Position numbers and translations under genes: made by a program. A DNA stretch of 64,000 bases from a virus. The DNA lies in IMG/VR virus record IMGVR_UViG_3300028844_002785, positions 1-64,000 of that record. One strand, given 5' to 3'. Each line of letters starts with the position of its first letter. Position 1 is the first letter of the stretch. Shown here in pieces: positions 62,615 through 64,000 of the stretch. A model generated the notes under the pieces. It made no database searches. It had not been told where the DNA came from and saw nothing but the letters and a program-made list of their open reading frames with translations.

Positions 62615-62751
62615 CCATCATCATCCTCTACGATAGTAACTCTACTATCATTAGTTAAATAAAAATCCTTATCGGAATAGATCTCAGATTCTAATTCGTT
62701 AAGGATTTCTTTTAGCTTTTTATGTAATATTTTTAGTTTAGATTTTTTCAT
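62602..62751 (-). CDS. Small protein, 49 aa (MKKSKLKILHKKLKEILNELESEIYSD...DDDGYTD)
   Basis: Hand-translated; convergent 13-nt overlap with the end of regA. Confidence 0.7.
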   Translation of the reverse strand: MKKSKLKILHKKLKEILNELESEIYSDKDFYLTNDSRVTIVEDDDGYTD

Positions 62752-63321: not shown

Positions 63322-63354
63322 TGTGTTACTCCTAAAGTAATGAGGGTTTTTAAT

Positions 63355-63589
63355 CCCCGTTCCTTCAGTCGTGTGCGTCCCAATACCATTGACATTCTGG
63401 TGCTGAGTCCTTAAGGGTCTCAACTAACTCAATCTTAAGCTGATTGTTAAGATCATTATTGTTCTCAATCTTCAGCATGATAGCATCAGTTTGAGTACAG
63501 GTGAGTGTTGTATAGAATAATAGTTCTAGCATGGGATGAACGGCTCCGTTCCGCGACTTACTTGCGTCCGATTTCTCGGATGAACGACA
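63355..63589 (-). ncRNA. Double glnA-type glutamine riboswitch
   Basis: Minus strand reads CGUUCAUCCGAGAAAUCGGACGCAAGUAAGUCGCGGAACG-GAGC-CGUUCAUCCCA[~150 nt]UGGGACGCACACGACUGAAGGAACGGG: two CGUUCA-stem-ACGCA...GGAACG units. Confidence 0.82.
63365..63532 (-). CDS. 55-aa ORF nested in the riboswitch (MLELLFYTTLTCTQTDAIMLKIENNNDLNNQLKIELVETLKDSAPECQWYWDAHD)
   Basis: Hand-translated, open for 56 codons; GGAG lies 11 nt upstream of the AUG. Confidence 0.65.
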   Translation of the reverse strand: MLELLFYTTLTCTQTDAIMLKIENNNDLNNQLKIELVETLKDSAPECQWYWDAHD

Positions 63590-63594
63590 GGTCT

Positions 63595-63623
63595 ATTATA
63601 GACCTTATATAGTATTTAGTCAA
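63595..63623 (-). promoter_or_regulatory. Sigma70 promoter TTGACT-N17-TATAAT driving the riboswitch transcript
   Basis: Plus-strand agtcaa at 63618-63623 and attata at 63595-63600. Confidence 0.85.
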
Positions 63624-63680
63624 GTATAAATAATTATGTGTCTTTCGTGCGGCACACTCTACATTCGGAAAATACCATTT

Positions 63681-63712
63681 AATGGTACGGGTTTCGCACC
63701 GTACCATTTTTT
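63681..63712 (+). terminator. Rho-independent terminator
   Basis: aatggtacgg-N8-ccgtaccatt followed by a T-tract. Confidence 0.75.
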
Positions 63713-63784: not shown

Positions 63785-64000
63785 ATGACGGGACTCACAC
63801 GTTATACGTCCAGTGACATGGGCAAAATTCTTGATGCTGTAGGAAAATATAGTGTCGGACTTGATGATGTTTTCCACAGGTTACATTCATATGGTATGGA
63901 TAATCCTGGTGGTTCATATCCTCCATATAATATTGTAAAAGAATCGAACGTTAAATGGCGTATCGAACTAGCACTGGCTGGATGGTCAAGGGATGACATT
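63785..64000 (+). CDS. hsp20: Small heat-shock protein Hsp20 (5' part; runs off the window)
   Basis: Hand-translated MTGLTRYTSSD...SYPPYNIVKESNVKWRIELALAGW; AAGGAG Shine-Dalgarno. Confidence 0.92.
   Translation, partial: MTGLTRYTSSDMGKILDAVGKYSVGLDDVFHRLHSYGMDNPGGSYPPYNIVKESNVKWRIELALAGWSRDDI

Follow-up and report, generated by a model that had tools for sequence, protein, structure and literature searches.

Two units resembling the glnA-type glutamine aptamer lie on the minus strand (63586..63357) of the window, by which we mean the whole stretch of 64,000 nucleotides analyzed here, taken from the IMG/VR record of a T4-like cyanomyophage (87 kb, ~47% complete). Neither unit has a P3 stem of its own: unit 1 provides AAGUA-AGUCG and unit 2 provides CGACU-GAAG. 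Are these two aptamers in tandem, or one interlocked structure? An earlier note on this DNA had proposed, from the split P3 and E-loop parts and a local GAACG-GAGC-CGUUC, a single outer aptamer whose P3 leads into an inverted, circularly permuted second pocket. All of these parts are present, and P3 covariation, P1 variants, linchpin swaps and unguided consensus folding bear the proposal out. We consider it very likely that the locus encodes one riboswitch with two glutamine pockets, nested rather than tandem; that the pockets bind glutamine is inferred, in the absence of binding data.

In the predicted nested fold, the outer unit would be a complete glutamine-I (glnA-type) aptamer, with a P1 formed by the first CGUUC and the last GAACG, a P2a hairpin and an AAGUA/GAA E-loop. 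Its P3 is not capped by a hairpin loop and is instead closed by a second junction of at least 38 nt, a three-way junction that would constitute a circularly permuted aptamer. The P1 of this inner aptamer would be the local GAACG-GAGC-CGUUC hairpin, with a loop of 3–4 nt in the family, its P2 would enclose a 55-codon gene and its P3 would be the open stem shared with the outer unit. The features of the locus, in order of transcription, are as follows:

63623–63595, minus strand: sigma-70-like promoter, TTGACT-17-TATAAT, matching 11 of 12 consensus positions
63586–63582, minus strand: outer P1 5′ strand CGUUC, partner of GAACG at 63362–63358; a CGUUU/AAACG variant occurs in two relatives
63580–63567, minus strand: P2a hairpin of the outer aptamer, UCCGA-GAAA-UCGGA; double compensatory changes in three of its five pairs
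63566–63559, minus strand: outer junction strand CGC and E-loop 5′ half AAGUA (63563–63559), fitting the Rfam Glutamine consensus CGGAAGUA; the CGC holds the pocket G and C63564, linchpin partner of G63357 (pocket roles from PMC6698751)
63558–63554, minus strand: P3 5′ strand AGUCG, pairing with CGACU at 63371–63367; compensated variants occur
63553–63538, minus strand: linker C-G and inner P1 hairpin GAACG-GAGC-CGUUC, a circularly permuted P1 (GAACG at 63551–63547, CGUUC at 63542–63538, loop G63546 as the inner linchpin G); CAACG/CGUUG swaps occur
63536–63532, minus strand: 5′ strand of the inner P2 (P2b), UCCCA, partner of UGGGA; its final A doubles as the first base of the ORF start codon
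63365..63532, minus strand: 55-codon ORF in the inner P2 loop (phrog_504, E = 6e-25)
63382–63378, minus strand: P2b 3′ strand UGGGA, closing across the entire ORF
63382..63372, minus strand: the P2b 3′ strand followed by the inner junction strand CGCACA (pocket CGC, without an E-loop)
63371–63367, minus strand: P3 3′ strand CGACU, partner of AGUCG
63366–63357, minus strand: E-loop 3′ half GAA (63366–63364), G, outer P1 3′ strand GAACG (63362–63358) and linchpin G63357; Rfam consensus GAAGGAACG
63329..63368, minus strand: expression platform, in which CUGAAG (63368–63363) and CUUUAG (63337–63332) can form an alternative helix
63321–63154, minus strand: gene for a DUF4278-like small protein of 55 aa with two YRG motifs (phrog_545, E = 6e-36)
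63140–63118, minus strand: intrinsic-terminator-like hairpin with a T-run, which ends the unit

There is a single E-loop, at the outer junction, with AAA in place of the GAA half in ~45% of relatives; C/MA occupies its position at the inner junction. The earlier description of a 'shared P3 and E-loop' is thus upheld for P3, which crosses between the units, and fails for the E-loop, which belongs to the outer junction alone.

Complementarity over five nucleotides is trivial by itself. The AGUCG/CGACU pairing exceeds chance because it is conserved, with covariation, among the ~420 Synechococcus and Prochlorococcus phage records that match the leader and in hundreds of IMG/VR contigs. Five complete scans of IMG/VR covered all single-position variants of the P3 5′ strand within its conserved flank, and we read the partner five bases before RAAG-GAACG, a site that the scans did not select. 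Such variant samples are enriched by design, so their frequencies are not natural ones. Position 5 varied as AGUCA with UGACU (45 loci) and AGUCU with AGACU (10 loci), and position 2 as AAUCG with CGAUU (14 loci) and AUUCG with CGAAU (3 loci); at position 1, GGUCG was found with CGACU or CGAUU (G·U), and no variants at all were found by these scans at positions 3 and 4. P3 therefore carries four compensated double changes and several wobble changes, and every common variant is compensated. Uncompensated A·C mismatches were confined to two of ~293 loci, and all other non-compensated variants were compatible with wobble pairing. Apparent AAUCG/GAUUG mismatches in two loci were rejected, as the E-loop there is 1 nt longer and the true pair is AAUCG/CGAUU. 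In a separate nested subclass, found at metagenome loci L567–L686, P3 has 8 bp (for example AGCCGACU with AGCCGACU and GGACGACG with CGCCGCCC), and its outer, middle and inner pairs covary. Positions 3 and 6 of this longer stem are conserved A·C or C·A mismatches, replaced by U-A or A-U in some variants, and remain unexplained. Sequences of this subclass are present in Weinberg's 2010 glnA alignment, where they are filed as single units.

The fold as a whole was evaluated on compact versions of the element, 80–96 nt long and with a plain hairpin as inner P2, which occur in phage Bellamy and many IMG/VR contigs with the layout CGUUC-A-P2a-CGCAAGUA-AGUCG-C-G-GAACG-GAU-CGUUC-A-UCCCuucgGGGA-CGCAAA-CGACU-GAAG-GAACG. 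Because these relatives lack the inner ORF, the RNA sequence is conserved independently of it. Applied without guidance to nine ORF-free relatives, RNAalifold returned the outer P1, P2a, P3, the inner P1 hairpin and P2b, which together are the nested fold. Across 33 compact relatives, 99.2% of cells are paired in the nested structure and nine pairs have changed on both sides; the covariation score is 0.239, compared with 0.101 for shuffled data (0 of 500 reach it) and at most 0.053 with the partners slid. P2b has double changes at all five pairs among compact relatives, and in ORF-bearing relatives it recurs as CCCC/GGGG and GAUUAUG/CAUAAUC, covarying across ~165 nt. The single-sequence fold of the Bellamy element is no better than shuffles (z = −0.78), and so thermodynamics alone provides no support.

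Standard searches do not recover this architecture. At gathering scores, Rfam had no match in the whole window; below them, only unit 1 was detected (26.3 bits versus a gathering score of 35). Compact relatives scored 38.4–43.6 bits with the Rfam Glutamine model, above the gathering score, each as one outer aptamer with a 38–43-nt insert in P3, and unit 2 of the Bellamy element scored 34.5 bits. A covariance model of the compact element found the 5′ half in the window and misplaced the 3′ half at 63463–63500, because it cannot span the 168-nt ORF; the result is not usable as evidence, and it illustrates why standard scans miss the element. Elsewhere in the window, a weak match to the Rfam lactis-plasmid RNA at 62631–62724 on the minus strand (33.8 bits versus a gathering score of 70, E = 0.004) is probably due to chance.

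The ~165 nt spanned by the inner P2, whose coding role the earlier note did not mention, hold a real protein-coding gene. Of 183 ORFs found in inner P2 loops, 181 belong to one family with a fixed frame, a start codon 4 nt after CGUUCA and a UGA or UAA stop spanning the last P3 base and the E-loop. Codon-position entropies in this family are 1.34/0.83/1.54, and dN/dS is ~0.49. In the window, the UGA stop (63367–63365) covers the last P3 base plus bases 1 and 2 of the E-loop 3′ half; UGGGA together with the inner junction strand also encodes the C-terminal W-D-A-H of the protein. Of 241 unique relatives, 40 also have an entire small ORF enclosed by the outer P2a (layout CGUUCA-UCCuAUG ... uAGGA-CGCAAGUA), so either P2 loop can host a gene.

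Several relatives have rearranged the element. In Synechococcus phage S-B43 (L085:633–1244), an insertion with a 190-aa ORF interrupts it just after the first GGAACG-GAG, and neither a second CGUUC nor a 3′ half follows within 600 nt. Pfam had no match for this ORF, nor for the partial gene at 63785+ of the window. Another relative (L182) retains a 66-nt remnant of an S-B43-type insertion in the inner P1 loop, with the 3′ half intact. Four further relatives carry a partial duplication of the element's 5′ end (CGUUCAUCUUAUGUGUAACAUA-AGUUCAUCUUAUG...), in which copy 2 has A for the first C of CGUUC. Apparent AGUUC/AGUUG variants of the outer P1 were rejected, as they are due to a duplicated segment. 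When genome contigs were searched with a 14-base pattern, none of the matches listed, which came from non-cyanobacterial lineages, contained the full nested element; this search is uninformative about the host cyanobacteria.

Does the inner junction form a second pocket? Both pockets retain the nucleotides that contact glutamine in solved structures, namely C1:G59, G2:C58, the CGC strand and the linchpin pair. Two glutamine sites are inferred because these glutamine-I/II pocket nucleotides are present twice, and selective binding of L-glutamine is likewise an inference, resting on nothing beyond the conserved pocket nucleotides. The alternative that survives best, which we nonetheless hold to be improbable, is that only the outer aptamer senses glutamine and the inner one is a decayed or purely structural copy, a cap for P3 and a frame for the small gene. 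The missing inner E-loop fits that alternative, as does the way Rfam scores compact elements, treating each as one aptamer carrying an insert. However, CGUUC, GGAACGG and CGC of the inner pocket are as invariant as their outer counterparts, and in glutamine-II riboswitches the E-loop is structurally replaced by a terminal loop that forms a pseudoknot (PMC6698751). The linchpin also speaks against it, being a long-range tertiary Watson–Crick pair beside the ligand that matters only for pocket formation (PMC6698751). Usually both junction strands are CGC and a G follows each GAACG. The inner strand reads CGCA in 228 relatives, CGGA in 10 and CGAA in 3, and nine unique sequences from two backgrounds combine the inner CGGA with a C as the first base of the inner P1 loop. 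These swaps of the inner linchpin from C:G to G:C favor a functional inner pocket over a relic, although the pair is broken in a few relatives (CGAA with G in three, CGGA with G in one), as an outer-only sensor would allow.

The same swaps bear on whether the units are instead two independent tandem aptamers without P3, in which the first CGUUC pairs with the first GAACG and the second CGUUC with the last. Both P1 registers are allowed in 202 of 241 unique sequences, 157 glutamine 'doublets' have been catalogued as pseudo-cooperative tandems (PMC9481103) and Weinberg's alignment files such sequences as single units. Every informative variant, however, fits the nested register only. Thirteen unique sequences read CGUUC..CAACG-loop-CGUUG..GAACG and two read CGUUU..CAACG-loop-CGUUG..AAACG; all 15 pair perfectly when nested, and in tandem both of their helices are mismatched (C·C and G·G, or U·C and G·A). 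The inner CAACG/CGUUG swap requires at least 10 changes on a tree of the flanking sequence, although phage mosaicism inflates counts of independent events. There is also an outer class with CGGA and a C after the last GAACG, which retains the inner C:G in the same molecules, and in the linchpin-swapped classes a tandem register would give G·G and C·C. Of these comparisons, the tertiary linchpin pair is the strongest discriminator between nested and tandem. In addition, a tandem fold would leave P3 covariation without a function, the locus has a single expression platform, and for the window sequence the nested leader fold (−65.4 kcal/mol) is better than the tandem one (−61.1 kcal/mol) by 4.3 kcal/mol. 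Independent tandem aptamers are already disfavored on these grounds and are scarcely tenable. Equally hard to credit is an RNA whose regulation involves toggling between nested and tandem folds, for instance with a tandem-like P1 as the initial co-transcriptional fold. Synthesis of the first CGUUC and the first GAACG precedes that of the true partner by ~190 nt, which makes a transient unit-1 P1 plausible in most sequences (an inference only), but the inner hairpin forms once 3–4 more bases are made, and lineages with CAACG/CGUUG or swapped linchpins lose the tandem P1 helices and linchpins yet keep the element, so the tandem fold is not under selection and the switching suggested in the earlier note does not hold as a conserved feature.

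For the nested riboswitch, then, covariation, which is evidence from sequence comparison alone, shows the secondary structure and both linchpin pairs. The element appears to sit in a short transcription unit. Both hexamers of the promoter are kept in the leaders of relatives, and we infer that the transcript starts a few bases before the first CGUUC; contigs from RNA libraries fade out at ~63594–63624, which is only a weak hint as to the start. Three studies have RNA-library contigs that run across both aptamer halves and the ORF into the beginning of the downstream gene. These contigs reveal neither strand nor start, and carried-over DNA is not excluded; they are consistent with one transcript and do not prove it. 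Upstream, a terminator-like hairpin with a T-run lies at 63681–63708 on the plus strand, between the riboswitch promoter and a divergent gene from 63785. It would stop a plus-strand transcript coming from the left, although what lies directly on that side is the minus-strand unit.

After the whole element comes one helix able to sequester the Shine–Dalgarno sequence, and this is the only expression platform. CUGAAG runs from the end of P3 through the E-loop 3′ half to the next G; its alternative partner CUUUAG overlaps the Shine–Dalgarno AGGAG (63333–63329), and a small hairpin (63357–63341) lies between them. The minimum free energy fold of the leader (−72.7 kcal/mol), which contains the CUGAAG/CUUUAG helix and corresponds to the OFF state, is better than the nested fold by ~7 kcal/mol. 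Among relatives, R in URAAG and Y in CUUYAGG combine as A-U in 97, G-C in 78, G-U in 52 and A-C in 0; in phylogenetically independent pairs, Y followed R about seven times and the opposite occurred in none (median p = 0.016). Two further features touch this region. First, AUGAAC, with which the DUF4278-like gene begins (63321–63316), is complementary to GUUCAU in the outer P1 5′ strand (63584–63579), both on the minus strand; the two are paired in the minimum free energy fold, so the start codon, too, may be covered in the OFF state, and relatives with genes starting AUGGCA or AUGACU lack the complementarity. Second, many relatives (for example, L084:700–740) have a longer platform between the last GGAACGG and the Shine–Dalgarno sequence, in which ACGGAUCC is followed by a hairpin, its stem covarying and its loop of GAAA type, and then by GAGAAGGUU; this is absent from the window.

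The regulated gene would fit a glutamine riboswitch if it belongs to DUF4278, which is the IF17 domain and the usual target of this class (PMC6212724). The 55-aa protein itself matches Pfam DUF4278 only at E = 5e-4 and 20.7 bits, under the cut-off of 25.3, and the related phage S-SKS1 has a typical xTYRGVKY protein downstream. We propose that glutamine would stabilize the nested fold, withdraw CUGAAG from the CUUUAG helix and free the ribosome site. At high glutamine, translation of the DUF4278-like (IF17-like) protein would thus be switched on, as has been proposed for cyanobacterial gifB (PMC6212724); by inference, the platform is probably an ON switch.

The two sites are expected, again by inference, to be energetically coupled because the inner junction caps the outer P3. 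Topology further implies that ribosomes translating the inner gene, which stop at the UGA inside P3 and the E-loop, would have to unfold both pockets. These steps could make the element a cooperative two-glutamine sensor reset by translation, timing an IF17-like inhibitor of host glutamine synthetase by host glutamine and translation activity, in which folding of the inner pocket to cap the outer P3 would give a steep response like that of the glycine switch. We offer this tentatively and think it unlikely as it stands; ligand identity, stoichiometry and cooperativity are all inferred, and no binding data bear on them.

Natural riboswitches with two sites for one ligand use side-by-side aptamers (glycine) or kissing hairpins (guanidine-II), and an aptamer inserted, circularly permuted, into the stem of its own copy would be a new design for a multi-site sensor. 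We rate the element as a new architectural variant of a known riboswitch class. In the accessible literature we found no description of a nested or circularly permuted glutamine riboswitch, and no paper describing a nested arrangement of this kind for any natural riboswitch; Ames and Breaker 2011 was not covered, and a prior mention is not excluded. More recent publications by that group describe glutamine doublets as separate switches. Tandem glnA RNAs have been spoken of (PMC2864571), and published 'tandem' glutamine riboswitches may in some cases have been misread. A 2017 survey listed two glutamine aptamers in cyanophage genomes (PMC5473149), against the ~420 matching records here, and phage riboswitches may therefore be much commoner than reported. 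Because abundant marine cyanomyophages carry the element ahead of a gene likely to encode a glutamine-synthetase inhibitor, it is relevant to the ways in which phages sense and redirect the nitrogen status of their hosts. The nested layout is also a ready-made design for synthetic biology.

Among known systems, the closest is glutamine-I (glnA motif, RF01739; the Synechocystis gifB/IF17 leader; structure 5DDP as cited in PMC6698751). It has the same CGUUC/GAACG P1, a P2 hairpin, an AGUA/GAA E-loop at the base of P3, a long-range linchpin and a position upstream of a DUF4278 gene, in the window one that is DUF4278-like, along with a likely ON logic in which a blocked ribosome site is released (PMC6212724). 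Unlike glutamine-I, the P3 of the element leads into a second, circularly permuted pocket and not a hairpin, its P2 loops can hold whole genes and the window copy falls under the Rfam gathering score. Its junction CGC with G after GAACG also has the polarity of glutamine-II, in contrast to the CGG with C of glutamine-I. Glutamine-II (Downstream-peptide motif, RF01704; 6QN3) has the same CGUUC, CGC, GGAACGG and C:G linchpin, and demonstrates that the pocket tolerates another strand topology and works without the glutamine-I E-loop. It is, however, a single H-type pseudoknot with CGUUC before GGAACG, whereas the inner unit of the element is reversed (GAACG-loop-CGUUC) and shares a helix with a glutamine-I-type unit. 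The doublets of Sherlock et al. 2022 (PMC9481103) likewise place two glnA-like units within ~100–250 nt upstream of one gene, but as separate riboswitches with a platform each; here, the units cannot fold separately. Finally, the tandem glycine riboswitch also recognizes a single amino acid in two pockets and uses one platform, with coupling between sites expected, but its aptamers lie side by side and are joined by tertiary contacts, whereas here one permuted aptamer lies inside the stem of the other.
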